Below, one piece after another: positions 8,402 through 33,820 of a stretch of 34,118 bases of DNA. The translations under genes were made by a program, and so were the position numbers. Numbering within the stretch: position 1 is the stretch's first letter; each line of letters opens with the position of its first letter. The stretch comes from an uncultured Thermococci archaeon (GTDB taxonomy: Archaea > Methanobacteriota_B > Thermococci > Thermococcales > Thermococcaceae). The notes beneath the pieces are model-generated. The model had not been told where the DNA came from, ran no database searches, and saw only the letters and a program-made list of their open reading frames with translations. The DNA is taken from the NCBI GenBank assembly GCA_964615185.1, contig CAZTOS010000017.1:1-34118 (forward strand), read 5' to 3'.

Positions 8402-9565
8402 TTATTTTACTTTCAGGATACTTACGAGGTTTTGCTCCTCTAATTTATAAGCCACCACCACATAATTTCTATGAACTCCAATCTTGAGAGTTTGTACATT
8501 AAGAGCTTTTTGCTCGTCAATAAGTTTAATGCAGCTAATTTTCTTGGTTTTGTAATTCAAAACACATACTCCATAGATTGTTGAAGGATTTTCCTGACCT
8601 ATGCAGGGATTTGTACCTTTATAGGCGAATGCAAAGAAATGTTCATTTCCATTTCCTTTCACACTTTCAATGAACAAGCAGCTACTCATGTTCCAAATTG
8701 GAATCCTTCCCAAGATTGAGCCATTATAAGAGATTTCCACTATGTCAAAATTCGTTAGACCGTAAATTATGCCATTTGATACGGCAATTCCATGAAAACC
8801 AGATTTTCCAACATGATAGAAGTTTCTGTTATCGGTGAGTCTCCAGACAACTGAATCATTTTTGAGAGCCAGTATGTACCCACCTGTGGGATAGTAATGG
8901 ACTTCTTTAATTTTCCACTGCTTGTTATGTCTCACAACCCGCTTGTAATCACCAACACTCACAATCACTGTATCGTTAACAACCACAATTCCGCTTATTG
9001 TTCCGTTAATTTGGAACACCTTTATTCTGTCCGTAAGAATGATCAGTTTAGAGGTGTTTTTACCAGTATGCCCAAATATAAAGAATTCTTCATCCGTTTT
9101 CAAAATGTGGGGTGTCTCACTAAAAGAGAACCTCAAGTTATTGAGGAATATGGCAGTTGAATTTTGTAGCTCTATCTTCCATCCGTTAAATTCAAACACA
9201 GGTGCTGATAATCTAATGAGCTCTCCGCTGGGATATTTAACCCTATAATGCTCCCCATTGATCCTTAAAAACATGAAGTGATCTAAAAAGTAATACTCAG
9301 AAACTGTCAGCTGTTTCTCAACGGTACCGTTCTCCATACTTAAAAATTTCACCATAGAATCTTCAGGGACGAGGATTGAGTCATTACAATAGAAAAAGTT
9401 TTCTCCTTTTGCAGTCCACATCAAGGAAATGTTACCATGGAAATATGACTCGGTGGTATTTTCAAAGGAACTCTTTTGATGCTTTTCATGAATGCCTATA
9501 ACTACTGTTAGCACAACAAAAATAATAAATACAGAGAGGAAAATGTGCTTCATATTTAAATTCAT
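8402..9565 (-). CDS. Membrane-anchored extracellular protein, probable PQQ-like beta-propeller repeats
   Basis: N-terminal hydrophobic helix, beta-rich sequence (GYILALKNDSVVW), many N-x-S/T sequons; ATGA overlap with the upstream gene. Confidence 0.65.
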   Translation of the reverse strand: MNLNMKHIFLSVFIIFVVLTVVIGIHEKHQKSSFENTTESYFHGNISLMWTAKGENFFYCNDSILVPEDSMVKFLSMENGTVEKQLTVSEYYFLDHFMFLRINGEHYRVKYPSGELIRLSAPVFEFNGWKIELQNSTAIFLNNLRFSFSETPHILKTDEEFFIFGHTGKNTSKLIILTDRIKVFQINGTISGIVVVNDTVIVSVGDYKRVVRHNKQWKIKEVHYYPTGGYILALKNDSVVWRLTDNRNFYHVGKSGFHGIAVSNGIIYGLTNFDIVEISYNGSILGRIPIWNMSSCLFIESVKGNGNEHFFAFAYKGTNPCIGQENPSTIYGVCVLNYKTKKISCIKLIDEQKALNVQTLKIGVHRNYVVVAYKLEEQNLVSILKVK

Positions 9566-10824
9566 GTTGCTGTTCCTCCTTCATGATTAACCCTTCTTCT
9601 CGTTAGGATTATAAGGGAAAGTAAAACCATAAACCCATTCCCACATGTAACGTTTTTTGTTTCAATTACAGTTACTGTACTTGTTTTCGTTTTAACTATG
9701 GTTTCTGTCATGATTTTGGTCACTGTTTCAGTTTTTGTCAAAGCTTCTGCATACTTATTAAAAAGAAGCCTAACCTCACCATTTTGTGAACCAATTACGA
9801 TATATTTTCCATCTCTCGAAATTTCAACGCCTGACCATTCTCCAACTTCAGATTCCCAAAGAATTTTACCCTCGTTATTAAAAAGATAGACCCTACTTCC
9901 AACGACAGCTACAACGAATTCACTATTTTGAGATGCCGAAACATCAAAATAATAAAACACTCCACTTGCATCACCAATTCCACTGCTAAAAGAATAGTAC
10001 GAAGTTGGGCTTAGAGCTTGTGACCACAGAACATTCCCACTTTTATCAAGAAGGTACACATGAGTTGTTCCAACTGTTGTACTCCCCAGAACTTCTCCAG
10101 TCTCAACGGATTCAAGGGCTATATAGTTGTTACTTTCAGATATCTCCACGTCCAATATGTTGCCCTCTACAGAGTAACTCCAGAGCAACTTCCCATCATT
10201 CCCAAAAACGTGTAGCTTTGAGCCCACGCCAACGACAACATAGTTTCCATCGGCTGACAATGAGAGAGGATAAATCCTTCCGCTGAGCCTTTGAGTCCAT
10301 ATTAGTTTCTCATCTTCAAAGAAATACAGAGTTCCGTTTTCTGTACCTACTGCTATATAACAACCACAAGAAGATGCTGACGCTCTAATCGATTCATTAA
10401 ACATCAATTGGGCAATTAATTTTCCATTTCTATCAAGGATGTAGAGTTCTCTTTCCCCAACTCCGATCACTTTTTCCCCGTATTCTGAAATTAAAATTCT
10501 CTCTATATTTGACGTATTTTTATACTCCCACAGAAGCTCTCCATCTCCAGCAAACAGAGCAATACCCTTTCCTCCCACAGCTATGTAATTGTTATTTGAG
10601 AAGGACAGAGAAGACATGCCTTCACGTTTCCAAAGCAAGCTTCCATTTCTATTAAACACATAAACTCTTTCTCCGTTAGATGTCCCAATTGCGGCTATGT
10701 AAGAACCCTCAGGTGATATTTTCACTCTATCAATAAAGTCCTCCGTGTTATACACCCACTGAGATTCGAGTTGAACCAGAGACACAAAAACAAGAAACAA
10801 AACGATAGATGAAAAAGTCTTCAT
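9562..10824 (-). CDS. Secreted WD40/PQQ-repeat beta-propeller with Thr-rich linker and CGP-CTERM-like anchor
   Basis: Signal peptide, repeated (V/L)Y(V/L)F-x-x-x-G-x-LLW units, TKTETVTK linker, TCGNGFMVLLSLIILTRRR. Confidence 0.8.
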   Translation of the reverse strand: MKTFSSIVLFLVFVSLVQLESQWVYNTEDFIDRVKISPEGSYIAAIGTSNGERVYVFNRNGSLLWKREGMSSLSFSNNNYIAVGGKGIALFAGDGELLWEYKNTSNIERILISEYGEKVIGVGERELYILDRNGKLIAQLMFNESIRASASSCGCYIAVGTENGTLYFFEDEKLIWTQRLSGRIYPLSLSADGNYVVVGVGSKLHVFGNDGKLLWSYSVEGNILDVEISESNNYIALESVETGEVLGSTTVGTTHVYLLDKSGNVLWSQALSPTSYYSFSSGIGDASGVFYYFDVSASQNSEFVVAVVGSRVYLFNNEGKILWESEVGEWSGVEISRDGKYIVIGSQNGEVRLLFNKYAEALTKTETVTKIMTETIVKTKTSTVTVIETKNVTCGNGFMVLLSLIILTRRRVNHEGGTAT

Positions 10825-10836
10825 TTAAAGTCCTCC

Positions 10837-12237
10837 CTATTTTTTTGCAAAATATTGAGATGCAGTGTCATCTGGTGCAAAACATCCTCTACAATGTGCA
10901 TTCGCCCATTCACATGCCAAGCCACAATCCCCCTTATATTTACATGCTAGTACATAGGGCCATACCATTAAATTAGTTACCATCGAATATGGTGGATTCT
11001 GTGGATTTGTGGGTAGTTCTCTAAGCCAACTTTTTGAGGGATGACAGTAACCTGTGCTCATATAACAGTTATACTGAAAGATTAGATGGGTTTGTTGATA
11101 TACATGAGCCTCTCTATTATATGCAGTAGCAGTATAAAAGAATTTTATTTGGATTGATCTTATGTTAAGGTTGTATTTTCTACTCATATAATCAACGTAA
11201 GGTTTATATGTTTCAAATATCACACTTGGATTATTACTGGAAGGGAATTTGTATAAACAGTAGTCCGCAACATGAGAACTTCCACTGGGATATGTATCGG
11301 AATACATTCCTATCCATACCACAGCAGGTCTAAGATTTATAAAACGAGTTCCATCACCTAATGGATGCCCAAGGGGATCTGGACAACAGCTCACTACTTC
11401 ACCCTTTCTGATTTCTCTACAAACATACACAATATTACCGTTCTCAGTCTTTTTCCAACATTCCCATGGAGAAGGGGTAGAGCTCAAAGGCACTATGCCA
11501 ATCATTGTATTATAAAGTATTTGATTCCGTCTGGTTTCCTCTAGCGCCTCATATGCATATAGTTCATCCCTCTTCCTTAAATACTGATAAATCTCATTCC
11601 AAAGTTTTCTTTTTTCTTTGATTATTTGAAGGGCATTATTGATCGAAGCTTGGTTGTTCTTAATTTTTTCAAATGTTGTTTGAAGCTCATATTCTAAGTC
11701 CATTATTTTATTAAAAGTATCTTCTGCTAGATACCAGTATAGTCCAGCTATGTCACTTGAAGTTTTTATCTTTCTATTTATTCTATTTGCTGGTAGCAAT
11801 CTCTGAATATCCGTAGTATAATTATTAACAATTGCTTTAGTGTCGTAAGTAGTGTAAAGGTTTCTCTGATACCTCTTTAGAATCTCCTTTACAGTTTTTT
11901 GTCTCTTGTAGAACTCAAGTTCACTCCTTAAAAGTTGAACCTCATCCTCAAGCTTAACAATCTTCTCAAGGGTTTCAACACTTTTGGTTCTGTTGAGTTC
12001 TGCATAAAGTTTCTGTAATTCTGCTTCTTTTTGATTAATCACTTCAGTCAAGTTTTCAATCTTTGCATTCACCTCACTCAAAGCTTTATCAATGTCAAAA
12101 TCCTGGCAAGAACAGCTTTCACACTTCTCAGTCCTAACTTGCAAGTCCTTGACTTCCTAGAACTGCTCAGCAAAAACAAAACCAAAACTGCTAAAAACCA
12201 ACAACACAAGGATGCCCAAAACTACCCATCTTTGCAT
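10837..12237 (-). pseudogene. Secreted coiled-coil plus Cys-rich protein interrupted by an in-frame TAG at codon 27
   Basis: ATG 12237 after a G-rich RBS gives MQRWVVLGILVLLVFSSFGFVFAEQF*EVKDLQVRTEKCESCSC..., in frame with the 435-aa ORF; TAG at 12157-12159. Confidence 0.7.
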
Positions 12238-25785: not shown

Positions 25786-26727
25786 TTAGATGAGTCTCCA
25801 AATACTTTTTCTTAGGAATGTCTCTCTTAGCTGTGGTGGAGCTTTTAGCAGGGCTTCAACTAATTGCTTTTGAAAGTTAATCTGCTGAGGAATTCCAGTT
25901 TTTTCAAACTCTTCTTTGAAAGACTTTCCATCTTTTATGGACCTTGACAGTGCATAAGCGGAAATTACTGAAGGTCTTATCCCCTCGCCAGTTAGTGGAT
26001 ATACTGCTCCCAGCGCCTCTCCTATAACAGGATACTTAAAATTGTACATCTCCTCTTTTATGGCTCCGGCATAAATGTGTGCACCTTCTTTTCTTTCAAT
26101 TTTTGCATCTCTAAAACGCTCATCATTTTTAATGAAGGAATTAAGTCTCGCTTTTAAGTCAATATAACTTAAAAATCCTCCAATACCAACATTTGCCTTA
26201 TTTCCTCGTGGGAACACCCAAATATAGCCGACGAAATCAGTGTAAAACCAAATTTCTAAAACATCATCTTCGATTTTAGCATCTTTCAGTGTATATTGAT
26301 ACGTCAAAAACCTCCACCTGCTTTCATTGTAGAACATACTTCCTGTAGCAATTACAATAACATCTTCGTCTTTTGTTTTTATCATGGGTTCCTGCCCTTT
26401 GAATTTAATGAGCTTACCCAGTTTAACTTCTATGTCATTCACAAGCCATTTGATAAATGCAGGTTTGTTGAGTATATATCCCCGAGATGCCCTCTGATAA
26501 TTTTCACTCAACAACTCATTGTTGAGATACGTCCTTTGCCCACGTATTTCATTTAAAATGGACTCTTCTGGAATTTCAATGTATTTTTCTAAACTTTTTG
26601 GAACTGCCCAAGCACATGGCTTTGTTCCTAAAGATTTCCTCATTTCGTAACCTCTTACTTTAAATTCATCTTTAAGATAGTAAGCCAAAGACGCCCCTGC
26701 TATACCCATACCAACTATGTGAATCAT
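25786..26727 (-). CDS. Geranylgeranyl-reductase-family FAD-dependent oxidoreductase
   Basis: ATG 26727 after GGTGA; IVGMGIAG, KPCAW, GYIWVFP, NVGIG, IGEALGAVYPLTGEGI. Confidence 0.8.
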   Translation of the reverse strand: MIHIVGMGIAGASLAYYLKDEFKVRGYEMRKSLGTKPCAWAVPKSLEKYIEIPEESILNEIRGQRTYLNNELLSENYQRASRGYILNKPAFIKWLVNDIEVKLGKLIKFKGQEPMIKTKDEDVIVIATGSMFYNESRWRFLTYQYTLKDAKIEDDVLEIWFYTDFVGYIWVFPRGNKANVGIGGFLSYIDLKARLNSFIKNDERFRDAKIERKEGAHIYAGAIKEEMYNFKYPVIGEALGAVYPLTGEGIRPSVISAYALSRSIKDGKSFKEEFEKTGIPQQINFQKQLVEALLKAPPQLRETFLRKSIWRLI

Positions 26728-26842
26728 TAGTATCACCCAACTTAGTTGGACAAACAACTTACTAATTAAGTTTTTGCTGAAACTAATTGTCAATGTGACA
26801 ACAAGACAATAGGAGATTTTAATCTGTTTACAATATTTGGAA

Positions 26843-26901
26843 CAAAAAATTTAAATAAAAGATAGTAATTAACATAGAATACAAAAACTTAACGGAGGTG
26901 A
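26843..26901 (+). promoter_or_regulatory. BRE/TATA promoter and RBS of the RiPP precursor operon
   Basis: CAAAAAA-TTTAAATA at 26843-26857; GGAGGTGA at 26894-26901. Confidence 0.7.
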
Positions 26902-26907
26902 TATTAG

Positions 26908-27003
26908 ATGGAGTACGAGGCACCAAAGATTGAGAAGGTTGAAGGAAAAGTTGAGCCCTATGGGACTCTCGGGGCTGCTTGCTGTTGCATTCTTCAAGAA
27001 TGA
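26908..27003 (+). CDS. Putative RiPP precursor peptide, 31 aa: MEYEAPKIEKVEGKVEPYGTLGAACCCILQE
   Basis: Below the ORF-track cutoff. Perfect GGAGGTGA RBS 6 nt before the ATG, its own promoter, YxxP leader motif, CCC near the C-terminus, directly upstream of rSAM and PqqD genes. Confidence 0.85.
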   Translation: MEYEAPKIEKVEGKVEPYGTLGAACCCILQE

Positions 27004-27004
27004 A

Positions 27005-27027
27005 TTTACTTTTTATTTTTTCTTTTT
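27005..27027 (+). terminator. Oligo-T tract between precursor and rSAM gene (probably leaky terminator)
   Basis: TTTACTTTTTATTTTTTCTTTTT just after the precursor stop. Confidence 0.5.
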
Positions 27028-27053
27028 AAAATATTACTACAAAGGTGATGAAA

Positions 27054-28238
27054 ATGATGAAAGAGAGAAGGTTGAGAATTGATTGGCACTTAACATACAA
27101 CTGTAATCTAAACTGTCTTCACTGTGGTGTGGTAGAGTATAGGGGTAGAGATTTCATTGAAGATCTCTACCTTAACAATAATAAAAATAGAATAATAGAC
27201 ACTCTTAGGCAACAAGACTTAAATTTGTTTATAAATCTCCTTAAGAATGATGGTAAATACTTGTTTTCAATACATTTTTCACCAAATATTGGAGAATCAA
27301 CTATCCATCCAAATTTTGTAAATATCTGGAATAATGTCTCTTCGGTTGACAGAGTATATATGCTTGCGATTACAACTAATGGGATGACACTTTATAAATA
27401 CCTACCTAGGATGAATGTAGAAAAACTTAGAACCTCAATATTTAGTTTAGATGGTGATGAGAATACACATGACAAAATAAGAGGTAATGGTACTTTTAAA
27501 AAGACATATAGATCAATTCAAAAGATCGATGAGCTAAAGCAAGAAGACAGTTCTTTCTATCTCCAGATTAACTTTGTAATTAATAAAATAAATGCTGCTT
27601 CACTTAAAGAATTACCATTGTTACTAAATGAACTGAACAGCAAAAATATTGTAATAAATGTCATACCTATAGACACAACTTTTGGGAATGCTAGAATAAA
27701 TCGGAAACTACTTGAGATTCAGATTAGTGAAATAGCAAATAGCATAAATGATGCATATAAACAACTTAAAACAATTAATGCTGAAAGAATAAAAAATGGA
27801 AAATCTATCATAAAGATTCGTTTGATGGCATTTACAAGTAAACAAGCACTCCAAATTGTTAGCAAAATTCAAAATTTAAGTTTCTCTGATTTTATAATTC
27901 CTCATAAAGGATGGAAGAAATCATGTTCGGCATATAATCAGAAGGGAATATACTTGGATCCTTACGGAAATTTGTTTCCATGTGAATCATTCACTATACC
28001 TCATGTACTTGCTAGGTTCTATTCAACGAATGGTTATATACCTATTCCAAATATTTATGATGGGTTTAGCTCTATAGAGGAGATATTACATTCACAGTTT
28101 TTTTTAGCTGCAAAAAAGTGGATAAATGAACTTTATGACTTTAGTATTTGCAATTCGTGCCCAATGAAAAAATCTTGTACAGTATGTCCTATATATAGCT
28201 CTATATGGGGGGTTCCACATGACTGTTCAGCATATTAA
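27054..28238 (+). CDS. Radical SAM/SPASM-domain peptide maturase
   Basis: CNLNCLHC (CX3CX2C), ITTNG, SLDG...HDKIRG; SPASM C-X13-G-X4-C...CX2CX5CX2C...C. Exact start (27045-27057) uncertain. Confidence 0.9.
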   Translation: MMKERRLRIDWHLTYNCNLNCLHCGVVEYRGRDFIEDLYLNNNKNRIIDTLRQQDLNLFINLLKNDGKYLFSIHFSPNIGESTIHPNFVNIWNNVSSVDRVYMLAITTNGMTLYKYLPRMNVEKLRTSIFSLDGDENTHDKIRGNGTFKKTYRSIQKIDELKQEDSSFYLQINFVINKINAASLKELPLLLNELNSKNIVINVIPIDTTFGNARINRKLLEIQISEIANSINDAYKQLKTINAERIKNGKSIIKIRLMAFTSKQALQIVSKIQNLSFSDFIIPHKGWKKSCSAYNQKGIYLDPYGNLFPCESFTIPHVLARFYSTNGYIPIPNIYDGFSSIEEILHSQFFLAAKKWINELYDFSICNSCPMKKSCTVCPIYSSIWGVPHDCSAY

Positions 28239-28488
28239 ACTAAATGATGGGTGGATAATTACCGAAGATGGATTCATAGTACATTTAGTGAAAGGAGAGG
28301 TATATAAGCTTAATCATGTTGGCAAGAAGATACTACAACTAATAATGGAAGGCAAAAGCGAAAATGAGATATGCGACATAATTTCAAAAGAATACTCTGT
28401 TGATTCTAAACGAGTAAAGAGTGAATTTAGAAAATTCATAACCTCTCTAGAAGATATCGGGATAGTAGAGGTGGAGAAAGATGAATAA
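28219..28488 (+). CDS. Stand-alone PqqD-family RiPP recognition element (RRE)
   Basis: 89 aa; VYKLNHVGKKILQLI...ICDIISKEY...EFRKFITSLEDIGIV is the typical PqqD pattern. Confidence 0.88.
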   Translation: MTVQHIKLNDGWIITEDGFIVHLVKGEVYKLNHVGKKILQLIMEGKSENEICDIISKEYSVDSKRVKSEFRKFITSLEDIGIVEVEKDE

Positions 28489-29587
28489 TAAAAAGTTTAT
28501 TGGGTTAGATATAGGCGCGTCACATATAAAAGCTACATCCATAGATGAAGACTTGAATGTGAATGTAGAGATTTATCCAATTTGGAAAAGTTCACTAAAA
28601 GGGAACATAAATAGAATTAATCTAATGAATGCAGTAGTAAAGCATATTATAAAGGAGAAAATTAAGAAATATGGAAAAGTTGATGTTAATATAGTGACTT
28701 CAATTGAGATGGCGTATCCATCGTTCAACTATTTAGACTTCTTTAATAGGCTCTCACAAAACTTCTCACAAGTTAATATTTATACGATAAATGAGAAGTT
28801 TGTTGTGACTCCTCTCCATGAATTGGAATCTTGGGCGAATTTATCCGTTTCTCACGCTCTTGGATATATCGGAAGTAAATTAATAGATATGGGAATACTT
28901 ATCCATATGAATTCCTCTTCGACAATATTTGTTCCAGTGCTAGTTGGAAATGCTGTATCCCAAGAAGTTCATTACTCTTCTGGTTTAGGAATGTGGATAG
29001 GGGCATTATATACGGATATTCATATGATTAGTAATGAATCTTTCATCTTTGGGAAAAAATCACTTATATCCCCTTCTTCAGCTACAATCCTCGATATCCT
29101 ACTTGAATTAGACGAACTATCATTAAAAAACATTATGTCAGACTATAAATCACCTGTTTCGATAACAGAAGAGTACAAAAAAGACTCCTTTTATAGATTA
29201 TTAAAACTCCTTGGATGTTTCCCTACGAGAAAATACAAAAACTCACGCAGTGATAAGGAATACGACCTTAAAAATCAAGTAAAAATTTCCTCTTTATATA
29301 TTTACTATAAGTTGTTAAATATTGTTTTTGAAAACGTTATTAAGATACTGTCTGATTTGGACATCCCATTAGATAATTTGAAACTCCTTCTTAGCGGTAT
29401 AGGAAAAGATTTTATTCTCCCCGATGCTTTGTATTTATTCAATGATAAACTTATTGATGTTGAGAGTTATATTCCAAAGCCATATTGCATCTTTCTAGAA
29501 TCTTTTAGTGCCGCTCTTTCCCTCTACGAATACATTACCAACTCAAAAATAAGTTTACATGAAATTAAATGGGGGAGCGATAAATGA
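28481..29587 (+). CDS. ASKHA-fold protein, divergent MfnF / hydantoinase-A-like
   Basis: IGLDIGASHIK phosphate-1 motif; VTSIEMAY, ILIHMNSSSTIFVPV, WIGALYT and SGIGKDFI correspond by eye to MfnF-family motifs (TAELAD, LVDMGSTTTDIIPI, YTGxxRT, GxGxF). Confidence 0.55.
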   Translation: MNNKKFIGLDIGASHIKATSIDEDLNVNVEIYPIWKSSLKGNINRINLMNAVVKHIIKEKIKKYGKVDVNIVTSIEMAYPSFNYLDFFNRLSQNFSQVNIYTINEKFVVTPLHELESWANLSVSHALGYIGSKLIDMGILIHMNSSSTIFVPVLVGNAVSQEVHYSSGLGMWIGALYTDIHMISNESFIFGKKSLISPSSATILDILLELDELSLKNIMSDYKSPVSITEEYKKDSFYRLLKLLGCFPTRKYKNSRSDKEYDLKNQVKISSLYIYYKLLNIVFENVIKILSDLDIPLDNLKLLLSGIGKDFILPDALYLFNDKLIDVESYIPKPYCIFLESFSAALSLYEYITNSKISLHEIKWGSDK

Positions 29588-30351
29588 GGCAGATAAAACA
29601 GGCATGGATTATAACTAAAACAACGTTTAAGAATTGGATACGCTATCCCGAGAACATCTTTGGAATGTTTTTATATTTGGGTATCGTGGCTGTGGTTGGT
29701 TATGCTTTTTCATTATCTAAAGGAATATTAAGTGTCAATGCCGTTCCTTATTACACGGTGGGGCTTTTGATATATTCCATACTCAGCCAGCAAAACGGTG
29801 TTTATATCCAGTTTGGAATCTGGAAAGAGGATATTTTATCAAAACCAATAAAACCGGATATATTTTTATTTGGCACTTTCTTTGGAGGATTGCTGACAAC
29901 ATCCTTGCCATCAATTATGCTCTTTATGTTTGTGTTCATCATTTATAAGAGTGCGTTTGTAATAATAAACCCTGTAATATTAGGGTTAGCACTAATTTTA
30001 GGGATTCTGAGTGCTGTTGGGGTAAGCTATATCTTTGCTTCCCTTGGTTTGAGATTTCGTCCAGAAGGGATGGTAGTGACAATAGTGACATTTCTAATTT
30101 CAATATTCTCTGGCATAATGATCCCCATTTATGCTCTTCCCGAAAAAGTGAGAGTACTCTCCTACCTGATTCCCTATACTTGGGCGATAGATTTGTTTAG
30201 ATACTCTCTCTTAGGCACGGAAACAATTCTACCCACTAATGACGAACTCAAGTACTTACTCTTGAGTGTGCTGGTAACTATAGTTCTCGGAAAGCTCTAT
30301 CTTCACTACACAATAAATGCAATAAGGAAGAAGAAGGTGATAATAAGATGA
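29584..30351 (+). CDS. ABC-2 type exporter permease
   Basis: Six TM segments, FSGIMIPIYALP...LIPYTWAIDLFR. Confidence 0.88.
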   Translation: MRQIKQAWIITKTTFKNWIRYPENIFGMFLYLGIVAVVGYAFSLSKGILSVNAVPYYTVGLLIYSILSQQNGVYIQFGIWKEDILSKPIKPDIFLFGTFFGGLLTTSLPSIMLFMFVFIIYKSAFVIINPVILGLALILGILSAVGVSYIFASLGLRFRPEGMVVTIVTFLISIFSGIMIPIYALPEKVRVLSYLIPYTWAIDLFRYSLLGTETILPTNDELKYLLLSVLVTIVLGKLYLHYTINAIRKKKVIIR

Positions 30352-31199
30352 TAGCCTTTGAGGATGTTCACATTTCATATGGAAAAAATGAGGTTATCAA
30401 GGGCATAAGTTTTGAGGTCAATGAAGGAGAGATCTTCGGCATCATAGGTCATAACGGGGCAGGCAAAACAACACTCTTGAGGGCAATGGTAGGAATAATA
30501 GCTCCAGATGAAGGAAAAATTCTCGTTGATGGCATCAATCCTCTCAAAGAAAAGCCAAAAGTGGCAATGCTCTTTGAGACCACAAAAGGGCAGAGCTTTC
30601 TCCGCTTAACTCCAGTTGAGGACTTGGAGTTTTACTCCGCACTCTACGGCGTTGAAGTGGACAAAGAGAGAATTTACGAGATACTAAAAATCGTCGGATT
30701 ATACAGTGCTAAAGATGAAAAGCTTTACACTTTCAGCAGAGGAATGTGGCAGCGACAATTTCTTGCGAGAGTTTTGCTTCCAGACTTTCCAATAATAGTC
30801 TTGGATGAGCCTTGGCTTGGCTTAGATGTTTCGGCACAAAGAGAAACAGTGGAACTTCTCAAAAAGCTCAAGAAAATGGGAAAGACGATAGTTTTGACAG
30901 CTCACGAGATGCCGCTCATTGAGAGAGTCTGCGACAGAATAATGCTTATCAACAAAGGAAAGAAAGTCATTGAAGGGAGTGTTAAAGAGCTTTTAGACAG
31001 ACTGAAATGGACGTATGAAGTTTTTATAGTTGGGGACGTTGAGAGTTTAAACCCAATCAAAAGGGATGGAAAGCTTATATTCTATGTTAAAGATTTGAAA
31101 GAGTTCCTTCAAAAGTTGAATTTTTCAAAAATTGACGAGATTGATGTTAAACCAATTTCACTAGAAGAAGCTTATTTGAAGCTCATGGGTGGTGGGTAA
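30348..31199 (+). CDS. ABC-2 (DrrA/CcmA-like) exporter ATPase
   Basis: GHNGAGKTT, FSRGMWQR signature variant, IVLDEP, TAH, C-terminal SLEEAYL. Confidence 0.9.
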   Translation: MIAFEDVHISYGKNEVIKGISFEVNEGEIFGIIGHNGAGKTTLLRAMVGIIAPDEGKILVDGINPLKEKPKVAMLFETTKGQSFLRLTPVEDLEFYSALYGVEVDKERIYEILKIVGLYSAKDEKLYTFSRGMWQRQFLARVLLPDFPIIVLDEPWLGLDVSAQRETVELLKKLKKMGKTIVLTAHEMPLIERVCDRIMLINKGKKVIEGSVKELLDRLKWTYEVFIVGDVESLNPIKRDGKLIFYVKDLKEFLQKLNFSKIDEIDVKPISLEEAYLKLMGGG

Positions 31200-31879
31200 T
31201 GATTGAGGCTAAAAACGTTGAGAAGTTTTATGAGTTTGGTAAGGTCAAAGCTCTTAAGAGCATCAACTTAACCTTTGAGGATGGCAAGTTTTACATAGTC
31301 GCTGGAGCTTCTGGGAGCGGTAAGACTACTTTGCTCAACATTTTGACAGGCATTGACAAACCAACCAGCGGAAAGGTTACTGTGGATGGAAGTGACATCA
31401 CGGAGATGAAGGAGAAAGATCTCAGACGCTACCGTCTTGAGAACTTTGGAATAATCTTCCAGTTCTTTTACTTAGTGCCATATTTGACGGGCTTGGAAAA
31501 TGTTTTACTGCCAATGAAGTACTCCAAAAAGATCAAAAATCCAGAAGAGAGGGCATTAAAATTGCTGAAGCTTGTTAATGCAGAACACCTCAAAGATAAA
31601 ACGCCATCTCAAATGAGCGGCGGCGAAATGCAGAGGATTGCCATTGCAAGAGCCTTAGCAAACAAGCCTAAATACCTCTTTGCAGATGAACCAACCGCCA
31701 ATTTAGACTGGGAGAACAAGCTTCGTGTATGGAGGCTTCTGAGAAAAATAAACAAGGAGGAGAGCGTTACGGTTATAGCTTCAACCCACGAGAGGGAATT
31801 TTTCGAGTTTGCCGACGTTCTGATAATCCTCAAGGACGGTGAGGTTCATGAAATTAAAAGCAACCCTCAGAAAGCTTAA
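31199..31879 (+). CDS. LolD/MacB-type ABC ATPase
   Basis: GASGSGKTT, MSGGEMQR, ADEPTANLD. Confidence 0.92.
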   Translation: MIEAKNVEKFYEFGKVKALKSINLTFEDGKFYIVAGASGSGKTTLLNILTGIDKPTSGKVTVDGSDITEMKEKDLRRYRLENFGIIFQFFYLVPYLTGLENVLLPMKYSKKIKNPEERALKLLKLVNAEHLKDKTPSQMSGGEMQRIAIARALANKPKYLFADEPTANLDWENKLRVWRLLRKINKEESVTVIASTHEREFFEFADVLIILKDGEVHEIKSNPQKA

Positions 31880-33794
31880 ACGGGAGAAGAAAAAAGCGAT
31901 TGTTGTGTTTTTAGCATTTCTCTTCGTGAGCCTCGGTTTCAACTTTACCCTCTCGGGAATTGGTAGCATAAATAAGGCTGTTGAAAATTTTGCCAAGCTG
32001 GGGAATGTGGAGCTCGAAGTTGAAGGAGTCAGCGTTGAGGACTTAAGTAAATTTGGTGAGGTTGTAAACTATGTCTACTTCAATGACACAAAGGTTGAGT
32101 TTAACGGGAAGGAATACAGGGCAATGGTGGGTTACGGTGAGTTTAAGTCCTTCCATGTGAAAACACCTGAGGATGGTGCCATTGTTTTAGCATTCCCAGA
32201 AATAAAGAAGGGCAATAAAATCAAGATTAGGGGTAGGGAGTATGAAGTCAGGGCTTCGTACTACTACCTCATGGACATTCCCATCATCTTGGTGAACGAG
32301 AGGGGCCGGCATCTCTACGCCCTCATGCGTTGTAACAACACGGAGGCTTTGGCGGGCTTTTTAATGAAGAACGGGAAAGTTAGATATTTTCGGGTATACG
32401 AAGACGGCGAGATTCCATACATGGACAGCCTGAAGAACACCAAAAACTTCGCAATGAGCTTTTTCTATTTGCTCCTCGGCGCTTCTTTGGCAGTAGTAAT
32501 CCTGATCACAATAACACACGTCAAGGAGAACGTTAGGGAAATTGGGATTCTAAAAGCGCTCGGCATTCCAGATTCATTTACATCTTCCCTCTTTATTGGT
32601 GATTATCTTCTCGTTGCTTTAACTGCATATTTAGCTGGAATCCCACTTGGAATAGAGCTCGGCTATTCCTACATAGCCTCAAAGTTTCTAATACCAACAA
32701 GTCCAGATTATACTTACCCGCTAAAGTTCGACATCTTCATCCTGCTCGGCATAACTCTAATTCTTTCACTCCCCTACCTTTATGTTTCAAGGCTGAAAAC
32801 CATCGAAGCCCTGCGCTTTACGCCAAGGAAGAGCTCTTCGCTTAGGTTCTTTGCAACCTTCTTCATTATCTTTCTCGCCGCTTCTTCTGCATACTTTGGT
32901 ATCAGGAGCATTGAGAATTTGGTCAGCTTCAACATCCCCTACAACCTCATGGTTTGGGGCGAGCCTTTAAAAATCGCCCAAGTTCCCGGCGAAAAAGCTG
33001 GCTATTTAAGCGGGCAGAAAGTTGATGGAATAACCACAGAGATTTACTTTTTCGACTACAAAAGTATCTTTGAGAAAACCCTCGTCGCCGGCCGGTGGTT
33101 CAAGAAACCTGACGAGGCCGTTGTTGAGAAAGGCTTAGCTAAAAAGCTGAGCCTAAAGGTCGGTGATACAATTAAAGTTCAGCTCCTTGGGGAGTGGCAG
33201 GAGTACAAGGTTGTGGGCATAAGTAGCATGAACTTCTACGACTTCAAGGCGGTGTTTCTGCCGAAAGTTCCCTTCGTTCCCGATAAAGTTGCCTTCCTGA
33301 ATGTGAAAAATCCAGAAAAGCTGAGAGAGAAATATGAGAGGTTTGGTCTGGGTGCCGTCACAATGGAAGATTTGAAGAGGCAGACGAAAAGCAACTTAAT
33401 GCTCCTTAAGACCGCAGTCTACGGAGTAATTGGGATAATTTTCTTCATAAGCCTCTTTGCGCTCTTCGCTTTGATCTACCTTGAAATTGAGGGCAACGAG
33501 AAAGTTTATGCAACACTGAAAGCTATAGGCATTCCAAATTCTCACATTTGGAAGGAGTTCCTTAAGAATGCCCTGCCTTCGCTGATTGCTGGCTCGCTCT
33601 TAGCTCTGCCGATAAGCCTTAAAGTTGGAGAATACATCGGAAACATCGTTTTGCCAGCAACACTCAGCATAAGCGATTTGACCAAAGTAGTTCCGCTGTT
33701 GTTGGTGCTCTACTTACTCTATGGGATTTTCATAGTTTTGCTGACGAACAGAGCATTGAACAAGCTCAACGTAGTTAAAGCGTTGAGGAGTTAA
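31848..33794 (+). CDS. FtsX/MacB-type ABC permease with two FtsX repeats
   Basis: REIGILKALG and YATLKAIG repeats, two extracellular domains; ATG 31848. Confidence 0.88.
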   Translation: MKLKATLRKLKREKKKAIVVFLAFLFVSLGFNFTLSGIGSINKAVENFAKLGNVELEVEGVSVEDLSKFGEVVNYVYFNDTKVEFNGKEYRAMVGYGEFKSFHVKTPEDGAIVLAFPEIKKGNKIKIRGREYEVRASYYYLMDIPIILVNERGRHLYALMRCNNTEALAGFLMKNGKVRYFRVYEDGEIPYMDSLKNTKNFAMSFFYLLLGASLAVVILITITHVKENVREIGILKALGIPDSFTSSLFIGDYLLVALTAYLAGIPLGIELGYSYIASKFLIPTSPDYTYPLKFDIFILLGITLILSLPYLYVSRLKTIEALRFTPRKSSSLRFFATFFIIFLAASSAYFGIRSIENLVSFNIPYNLMVWGEPLKIAQVPGEKAGYLSGQKVDGITTEIYFFDYKSIFEKTLVAGRWFKKPDEAVVEKGLAKKLSLKVGDTIKVQLLGEWQEYKVVGISSMNFYDFKAVFLPKVPFVPDKVAFLNVKNPEKLREKYERFGLGAVTMEDLKRQTKSNLMLLKTAVYGVIGIIFFISLFALFALIYLEIEGNEKVYATLKAIGIPNSHIWKEFLKNALPSLIAGSLLALPISLKVGEYIGNIVLPATLSISDLTKVVPLLLVLYLLYGIFIVLLTNRALNKLNVVKALRS

Positions 33795-33820
33795 GTTTTT
33801 GATCTTTGGTTTTTTCTTTA
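33795..33820 (+). terminator. Oligo-T terminator at the end of the RiPP/export operon
   Basis: GTTTTTGATCTTTGGTTTTTTCTTT after the stop codon. Confidence 0.5.

Follow-up and report, generated by a model that had tools for sequence, protein, structure and literature searches.

A candidate RiPP cassette of Thermococcales that joins a radical SAM enzyme to an MfnF-like protein

What is made by an operon that joins a short cysteine-rich peptide to a radical S-adenosylmethionine (SAM) enzyme and to a relative of MfnF? The question is raised by a 34,118-nt stretch of DNA from an uncultured Thermococci archaeon, here called the window, which is contig C17 of a 2.26-Mb genome that is 95.6% complete. 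In the labels used below G denotes a genome (G000 being that of the window), L a locus, C a contig and P a protein. The gene content of G000 and a named Thermococcus homologue (P0006) indicate Thermococcales. The operon lies on the forward strand, and runs from a 31-aa peptide through a radical SAM enzyme, a PqqD-type recognition element (RRE) for peptides that are ribosomally synthesized and modified post-translationally (RiPPs) and an MfnF-like protein of the ASKHA fold to an ABC-2 pair and a MacB/FtsX pair of ATP-binding cassette (ABC) transporter genes. From the radical SAM gene onward the spacings are −20, −8, −4, −4, −1 and −41 nt, i.e. the genes overlap. An earlier, sequence-only reading had placed these eight open reading frames (ORFs) correctly, as a co-directional and overlapping run. 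Its start at 26843 does not stand, however; the left edge of the cassette is a divergent reductase gene (25786–26727, reverse strand), a member that was overlooked. The cassette is most probably a RiPP pathway of undescribed type (probability about 0.9, from sequence). The RiPP reading was already that of the earlier study, and is supported by precursors in all five intact loci, and in the window by proteins encoded with the precursor that match PF05402 and PF04055 above the cut-offs.

The precursor gene (26908–27003, +) encodes a peptide of 31 aa, MEYEAPKIEKVEGKVEPYGTLGAACCCILQE, and is preceded by a putative ribosome-binding site GGAGGTGA (26894–26901, +) that is invariant in 5/5 aligned loci. 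Residues 1–19 probably comprise a leader that contains YxxPxI and PxG motifs, with a Cys-rich core in residues 20–31. No Pfam or NCBIfam family matches the peptide. The DNA upstream of the radical SAM gene is intact in five distinct loci (the window, G066, G020, L052 and L057), and all of them carry one or two small ORFs there, giving seven peptides in total. G045 and G094 (altered upstream) together with G054 and L053–L056 (contigs that end too early) were left out of this scoring. In G045 a deletion runs from the leader into the RRE, removing the core, the radical SAM gene and most of the RRE. In G094 a repeated element occupies the region upstream of the radical SAM gene; an open frame at the start of contig C1 of that genome was rejected as a precursor, as the repeat is present at three contig ends.

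All seven peptides have YxxPx[ILV], then PxG and then a Cys-bearing core. Six of them have Thr or Cys directly behind PxG, and that of G066 has Met. The cores differ widely in length (9–17 residues) and in sequence, with CCC in two, CC in four and a single Cys in one. The earlier description of a peptide with CCC is therefore correct as to a real precursor with a Cys core, but CCC is present in only 2/7 peptides and was rejected as a signature of the family. Orthologous loci lacking a similar peptide had been named beforehand as the finding that would refute the reading; on examination precursors are found in 5/5 distinct intact loci.

Over the 19 codons of the leader the window and G066 differ by seven synonymous and three non-synonymous changes, while their cores are unrelated. 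The comparison indicates that the leader codons are under purifying selection. The L057 peptide has the same register, CCC included, though the radical SAM enzyme of that locus is 39% and its ASKHA protein 33% identical to those of the window. Since the leader differences are mostly silent and the L057 peptide keeps the register, the 31-aa ORF is judged to be a genuine precursor and not a chance frame. Contig X2 from the assembly of a separate study covers 26860–27540 with 0 differences, joining the peptide to the radical SAM gene. An assembly of genes brought together by chance or in decay, with no peptide product, is highly improbable. Several copies are indeed broken (G045, G066, G094 and L056), but in L057 the gene order and the motifs of the peptide persist at protein identities of 33–39%, the leader appears to be selected, and the window copy is unbroken.

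The stand-alone PqqD-type RRE (28219–28488, +) matches PF05402 with 47.3 bits against a cut-off of 23.4, as the earlier assignment required. Its best NCBIfam matches are PqqD chaperones of lasso peptides, under cut-off. YxxPx[LVIFA] is described as the leader motif read by discrete lasso-type RREs in the available text of two papers (PMC13381572; PMC12710340), and the YxxPx[ILV] of the cassette fits the RRE-binding motif given in the first of these. This is what the cassette has in common with lasso peptides and LPP, where a YxxPx[LVI] leader is read by a discrete RRE (PMC13381572, in part). A lasso peptide itself was rejected, since a search of ten proteins for a lasso cyclase, B2 peptidase, S26 peptidase and HPr-type kinase returned none among the cassette genes, leaving neither cyclase nor leader peptidase.

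The radical SAM enzyme (27045–28238, +) matches PF04055 above the cut-off and has CxxxCxxC at residues 20/24/27. It has SPNxGES where GGEP, the usual radical SAM motif, would be found. Towards the C-terminus Cys294, 313, 369, 372, 378, 381 and 394 have the spacing of a SPASM domain, the last being absent in two of the nine aligned sequences that reach the C-terminus, including that of G066. The earlier SPASM assignment holds on the basis of this 7-Cys motif and the fold, but the Pfam SPASM profile (PF13186), which had been proposed as the check, gives no match in the window enzyme. The structural model has a predicted local distance difference test score of 85, and in Foldseek is most similar to SkfB and the thioether enzyme 5why/5wgg, followed closely by anSME and SuiB. 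The family is small: out of 1.84 billion, nine representatives reach E ≤ 1e-30, the next being at 5e-14. Among the 25 best of 43 NCBIfam families none comes near its cut-off (best score 60 bits against 380). A wider search of genome contigs with this enzyme alone, in which archaea of other phyla were not covered as whole genomes, gave two unrelated bacterial radical SAM enzymes; viral contigs gave one weak unrelated match, and a plasmid search none.

The archaeal thioether enzyme CrpC is described as having seven SPASM Cys with a three-ligand AuxI (PMC13692751, in part). By analogy, the cassette enzyme probably forms thioethers between the thiol of a core Cys and a carbon of another residue, and a core Cys is available as donor in 7/7 peptides. 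The radical SAM enzyme with 7-Cys SPASM, the RRE and the Cys core are all shared with the sactipeptides and ranthipeptides (SkfB, CteB, PapB) and with CrpC/CrpA of Methanococcus voltae, as far as the available text shows (PMC13692751). The cassette differs in that its RRE is a separate gene, its core is short with clustered Cys, and it has the additional MfnF-like and reductase genes. Cross-linking of the cyclophane (triceptide) type, which the earlier reading had also considered, is weakly founded. Cyclophane RiPPs need a conserved aromatic residue in the core for cross-linking; that of the window has none, and the Tyr of its PYG is replaced by E, T or L in 5/7 peptides, for which reason this type was rejected.

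A stand-alone PqqD with a radical SAM/SPASM enzyme is also the layout of the pyrroloquinoline quinone (PQQ) and mycofactocin pathways, where the core residues are invariant. The peptide might then be a scaffold for a small molecule, from which a residue rebuilt by the radical SAM enzyme is excised, the MfnF-like protein coupling a second metabolite to give a cofactor or signal. The mycofactocin enzyme is among the top weak NCBIfam matches of the window radical SAM enzyme, and MfnF is itself an enzyme of cofactor assembly. Against this, the cores vary in both length and sequence, and the cassette is patchy (6/99 genomes), often decayed and accompanied by exporters. A scaffold role is therefore improbable, and a modified peptide is taken as the product in what follows.

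The gene following the RRE (28481–29587, +) encodes an ASKHA-fold protein of 368 aa that has no Pfam match, so that its placement needs a profile or the fold. The window protein matches TIGR03123 at E 3.8e-6 (26.4 bits, cut-off 244), while NF040623, the MfnF model, is matched by two family members (E 1e-19 and 1e-11), the better of which, P0165, scores 70.8 bits against a cut-off of 520. A profile of the family finds the MfnF homologue of Protein Data Bank (PDB) entry 3c0b at E 1.7e-10, in agreement with Foldseek. Alignment with 3c0b in VIA-align gives Z 24.5 (root-mean-square deviation 4.0, 299 residues aligned, 20% identity); the next match has Z 14.9, with kinases and acetone carboxylase ∼10 Z units under the MfnF homologue. 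The protein is thus MfnF-like by ancestry, as had been proposed. A search of 5.8 billion proteins, covering near lengths with the 7996 best candidates scored, gave ten relatives.

MfnF couples F1-PP to glutamyl-tyramine through an ether bond, according to the available text of PMC8141765 and PMC11365854. The cassette protein has its fold, length and first phosphate loop in common with MfnF/Orf9 of methanofuran and methylofuran synthesis (3c0b/3cet). It differs in scoring far under the hidden Markov model (HMM) cut-off, in its altered second phosphate loop ([HQN]MNSxST), in lying within a peptide operon, and in that MfnB is not found in the genome. No match to MfnB (PF04476) was obtained in G000, at 95.6% completeness; two methanogen controls were positive. 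This makes methanofuran synthesis unlikely, and it was rejected as the function.

The divergent gene at the left edge (25786–26727, −; 313 aa from the ATG at 26727) encodes a flavoprotein of the geranylgeranyl reductase (GGR) family. It scores 39.1 bits against PF22578 (cut-off 27) and 111.7 bits against TIGR02032, under the cut-off of 158.8. Its best PDB match is 3oz2, and GxGxxG, YxWxFP and the active-site Cys are all retained, as in the archaeal geranylgeranyl reductases (PMC10821996, in part). The cassette protein is short, however, and has IGE where the GGR family has LxGD; the available text of the same paper lists LxGD among the GGR motifs and describes it as poorly conserved among paralogues. 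The nearest named relatives are proteins of Sulfolobales and Fervidicoccus (31–39% identity), and G000 has two further GGR-family genes. Among the 99 genomes of the order that form the Thermococcales comparison set, close relatives occur in six, the same six as have the ASKHA gene. In the window, G020, G045, G066 and L052 the reductase gene lies next to the promoter of the precursor; contig ends part the two in G054 and G094, and in G045 and G066 the reductase gene is frameshifted. On this sequence evidence it is a GGR-like member of the cassette, and the family predicts that it reduces isoprenoid double bonds.

From these assignments a route to a product can be proposed. The RRE would bind the YxxPx[ILV] leader in the manner of known PqqD-type RREs, and the radical SAM/SPASM enzyme would join at least one Cys thiol of the core to a carbon in a different residue. 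The MfnF-like protein would keep the reaction type of MfnF, in which a heteroatom displaces the diphosphate of an activated donor. Its acceptor would be the peptide, most likely at a remaining Cys thiol, and an isoprenoid diphosphate is the likeliest donor, because no furan-diphosphate pathway is found in the genome. The GGR-like flavoenzyme would saturate the attached chain, and as the distant locus L057 has no such gene this step is probably optional. There is no peptidase among the cassette genes, and removal of the leader behind PxG would fall to a protease of the host or take place during export. The ABC-2 pair would export the product, and MacB/FtsX would release it from the membrane or protect the producer. 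Prenylation is proposed because the nearest known reactions of the fold and of the co-occurring flavoenzyme are thereby combined, in a genome that has a polyprenyl-synthase motif and no furan pathway.

The whole chain, with thioether cross-linking, MfnF-type prenyl transfer and reduction, is put forward tentatively, and is more apt to fail at some step than to hold throughout. That the MfnF-like protein represents a new class of peptide prenyltransferase of ASKHA fold, with the prenyl group on Cys saturated to give a phytanyl-type lipopeptide, is rather unlikely. If this is true, the fold would be new among prenyltransferases and the product a lipopeptide with a saturated isoprenoid, an archaeal RiPP that is anchored, through a geranylgeranyl or shorter chain, by the chemistry of archaeal membranes. 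In the available text of a review of prenylation, the attachment of archaeol to lipoprotein Cys is the only case named for archaea (PMC13290415).

A number of observations weigh against this pathway. The Foldseek ranks of the radical SAM enzyme lie close together (template modelling scores 0.5–0.56) and do not fix its chemistry. We know of no prenyltransferase with the ASKHA fold. A core with a single Cys cannot serve both the thioether and the prenyl-transfer steps. The Asp-x-Gly in the second loop of 3c0b has become [HQN]MN in 10/10 distinct aligned members, and further stretches of the MfnF homologue are also not conserved in the family; catalysis may for these reasons be lost or changed. 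The reductase of G066 is broken while its radical SAM, RRE and ASKHA genes are intact, and no reductase is found in the 8.2-kb contig of L057 or beside a further MfnF-like gene cassette in G055. Its co-occurrence with the ASKHA gene is not independent, as linked genes travel together. At 67–81% identity it is far more conserved than the inner module, and could be a passenger of the frame.

The state of the active site bears on two other accounts. The same RiPP might be tailored by an ASKHA protein that uses ATP. As with hydantoinase/oxoprolinase A-type domains, a Thr/Ser of the core or the oxygen of a backbone amide would be phosphorylated, and this would drive cleavage of the leader at PxG, ring closure or the formation of a heterocycle, with the flavoenzyme performing redox chemistry on the product or feeding electrons to the radical SAM enzyme. 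The first phosphate loop (DxGxxHxK) and the GIG on the adenosine side are conserved in the family, and in the Atlas the neighbours of the protein are Hydantoinase_A clusters (0.95). A Thr or Cys after PxG in 6/7 peptides, in a cassette without a peptidase, would also suit this role. The second loop, however, lacks the Asp that would be expected to bind Mg, the G066 peptide has Met at the position in question, and the kinases and acetone carboxylase lie ten Z units under the MfnF homologue. Use of ATP is on balance unlikely.

Alternatively the MfnF-like protein could be non-catalytic, acting as a scaffold for the radical SAM enzyme, as a carrier to the ABC exporter or in self-protection, with a plain thioether-linked peptide as product. 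This agrees with the altered active-site loop, and with a G055 copy that is altered in another way; in both the window and G055 cassettes the gene directly precedes the ABC transporter. In G045 the ASKHA gene is intact, with MacB/FtsX, after loss of the core, the radical SAM gene and most of the RRE, but that deletion looks recent and the retention consequently says little. The invariant residues are concentrated in motifs that line the ASKHA cleft (MNSxST, SGxxxWxG and GIG), and in one G116 copy the second loop still reads DxGT, both of which speak for a working site. A non-catalytic role is therefore also doubtful, and the prenyl-transfer pathway is retained as the working proposal.

MfnF-like genes are found beside other maturases. 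A search with TIGR03123 of a phylum-wide set of 133 genomes matched eight. Five weaker matches were not counted as MfnF-like, being longer hydantoinase-type ORFs with no radical SAM motif within ∼1.5 kb. Distinct MfnF-like genes occur in G055, G116 and G122 (two of these in one genus), and 3/3 adjoin radical SAM maturases, which are of two types unrelated to that of the window. The G055 locus (L140; G055:C153:2147–4694, −) is an independent cassette with the order 34-aa three-Cys peptide, CefB/CrpC-like radical SAM enzyme, MfnF-like protein, ABC-2 pair; it lacks a reductase. An alanyl-tRNA-synthetase-like gene lies upstream of L140, and upstream of the cassettes of G020, G054 and G066. In G116 and G122 the MfnF-like gene is divergent from a pair of radical SAM/SPASM genes. 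The second loop is more canonical in the MfnF-like genes of L116, L117 and L098 (G116:C33, C39 and C9) and L139 (G122:C64). One MfnF-like gene of G116 adjoins a squalene-cyclase-like gene. If the contigs of G116 are joined as the overlaps of their ends suggest, two MfnF-like copies would flank a PxG peptide of 30 aa together with a B12-dependent RiPP radical SAM gene, and the squalene-cyclase-like gene would lie beyond. If the proposed role is true, MfnF-like genes beside three unrelated types of radical SAM enzyme would mark a recurring and unrecognised family of RiPP tailoring proteins.

L063 (8212–13456; G116:C3) has a 46-aa peptide whose leader ends in PxG and which has two CC pairs, then two radical SAM genes distantly related to that of the window, a double PqqD and a B12-dependent RiPP radical SAM gene; no MfnF-like gene is present within the 20 kb inspected. 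Fifteen other PqqD loci of the order, L064–L077 among them, include several radical SAM–peptide cassettes, none with the ASKHA family of the window. The order has many such radical SAM and PqqD cassettes (L064–L077), and in several of them small peptides of [YF]xxP type were seen (Trp-rich in G018, G040 and G066, CC-bearing in G082 and Val/Ala-rich in G070).

The exporter genes complete the operon. The first pair comprises an ABC-2 membrane subunit (29584–30351, +; PF01061) and a DrrA-like ABC ATPase (30348–31199, +; Pfam/NCBIfam), the second an ABC ATPase of MacB/LolD type (31199–31879, +; Pfam/NCBIfam) and a MacB/FtsX permease (31839–33794, +; PF02687 and PF12704). The ABC-2 membrane subunit is 40–57% identical to its non-identical relatives, and diverges alongside the inner module. 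The permease occurs in 17/99 genomes of the order, 11 of which have no cassette; in 9/11 of the latter, which were inspected, it lies at another site with no radical SAM gene. Both pairs of the two exporters noted earlier are thus present, but MacB/FtsX was rejected as cassette-specific, and is better described as a generic module recruited to the cassette.

A search with the ASKHA protein finds 6/99 genomes of the order and eight metagenome loci. L050 is identical to the window; L051 duplicates L010 and was omitted, leaving seven, in 7/7 of which the radical SAM gene and RRE precede the ASKHA gene in that order, with a transposase between RRE and ASKHA in L056. Among the copies of the order the reductase, the ATPases and MacB/FtsX are mostly 67–91% identical, against 35–49% for the radical SAM enzyme, RRE, ASKHA protein and ABC-2 membrane subunit. 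These four inner genes diverge jointly (33–57% outside near-identical copies). The mosaic of identities therefore describes an outer frame that hosts interchangeable inner modules. In G020, G045 and L052 the ASKHA gene is not followed by an ABC-2 pair; these copies have another ABC pair on the far side of the reductase. The radical SAM, RRE and ASKHA genes have 31–33% GC against 40.6% for the genome, suggesting that the inner genes were acquired. In contigs of run X5, at 80% likeness, the reductase and transporter genes are deeply covered and the inner module hardly at all; absent cover proves nothing, and the pattern fits a swapped inner module. From these sequence comparisons the cassette is proposed to be mobile.

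Of the 14 runs listed as carrying the window sequence, the best are vent metagenomes; none is RNA, so that they have no bearing on expression either way. By eye, transposase-like ORFs were seen at L050:15597–16615, directly after the cassette and likely the reason that the contig of the window ends, and at L056:1024–2601, where the RRE and ASKHA genes are separated.

To our knowledge few archaeal RiPP pathways have been characterised. The closest case by host is that of the sboA/albA/albC clusters of Thermococcus celer and T. nautili (bioRxiv 10.64898/2026.07.27.741052), a bioinformatic proposal that has in common with the cassette the host group and a Cys peptide encoded with radical SAM and ABC proteins. 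They are described as subtilosin A homologues, and the available text, the comparison being by description only, mentions no MfnF-like or reductase gene. The window peptide differs in that its leader is of lasso type and its core, with CCC, is short. That no characterised class combines these enzymes, as the sequence-only reading had supposed, agrees with the full-text literature, where no description was found (subscription papers mostly lie outside it, and supplements are excluded). The top-ranked full-text papers included no joint treatment of MfnF with RiPPs, and by title the MfnF papers include none on peptides. No full-text paper was found for hydantoinase, RiPP and radical SAM together, though data sets from RRE mining may still list such proteins. 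The combination is best regarded as an undescribed variant of the radical SAM RiPPs, and a new enzyme class within it as an unlikely extra.

The cassette suggests that RiPP tailoring is a role of the MfnF/hydantoinase-A branch of the ASKHA fold; no description of such a role was found. Should the sequence of prenylation and reduction be wrong, there would still be a new precursor family, with a YxxP...PxG leader and a Cys-cluster core, and a fixed frame with interchangeable peptide–maturase modules in vent archaea. As a 31-aa peptide with four small enzymes the system is compact and heat-stable, and could be rebuilt in a laboratory host.

The reductase and the operon are divergently transcribed from putative promoters, each kept in 5/5 aligned loci. 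A BRE/TATA-like element (26763–26776, −) would serve the reductase gene, and a second (26843–26857, +), BRE/TATA-like by the archaeal consensus, the operon. The region is flanked by an inverted pair of the 11-nt sequence CAAAAACTTAA (26766–26776 and 26882–26892), also kept in 5/5 loci, a further copy of which precedes the second precursor in G020. From its sequence the pair is possibly a regulator site or a promoter element.

Some neighbouring genes may be mentioned. Upstream of the L057 precursor (L057:2494–3077) is an ORF of 67 aa that begins like a signal peptide and ends in a Gly-rich tail, and then an ArsR-like regulator. The genome of the window has a second RiPP-like cassette inside purine genes (L142; G000:C36:11610–15405, −), with the order radical SAM/SPASM gene (473 aa), peptide of 37 aa whose leader has YxPP, FemAB/GNAT-like protein and an exporter of the major facilitator superfamily. 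Within the window itself, three ORFs of lower GC at 8402–12144 (−) encode proteins that are apparently secreted or lie at the surface; beta-propeller-like repeats are seen in two of them, and a coiled coil and a Cys-rich C-terminus in the third.

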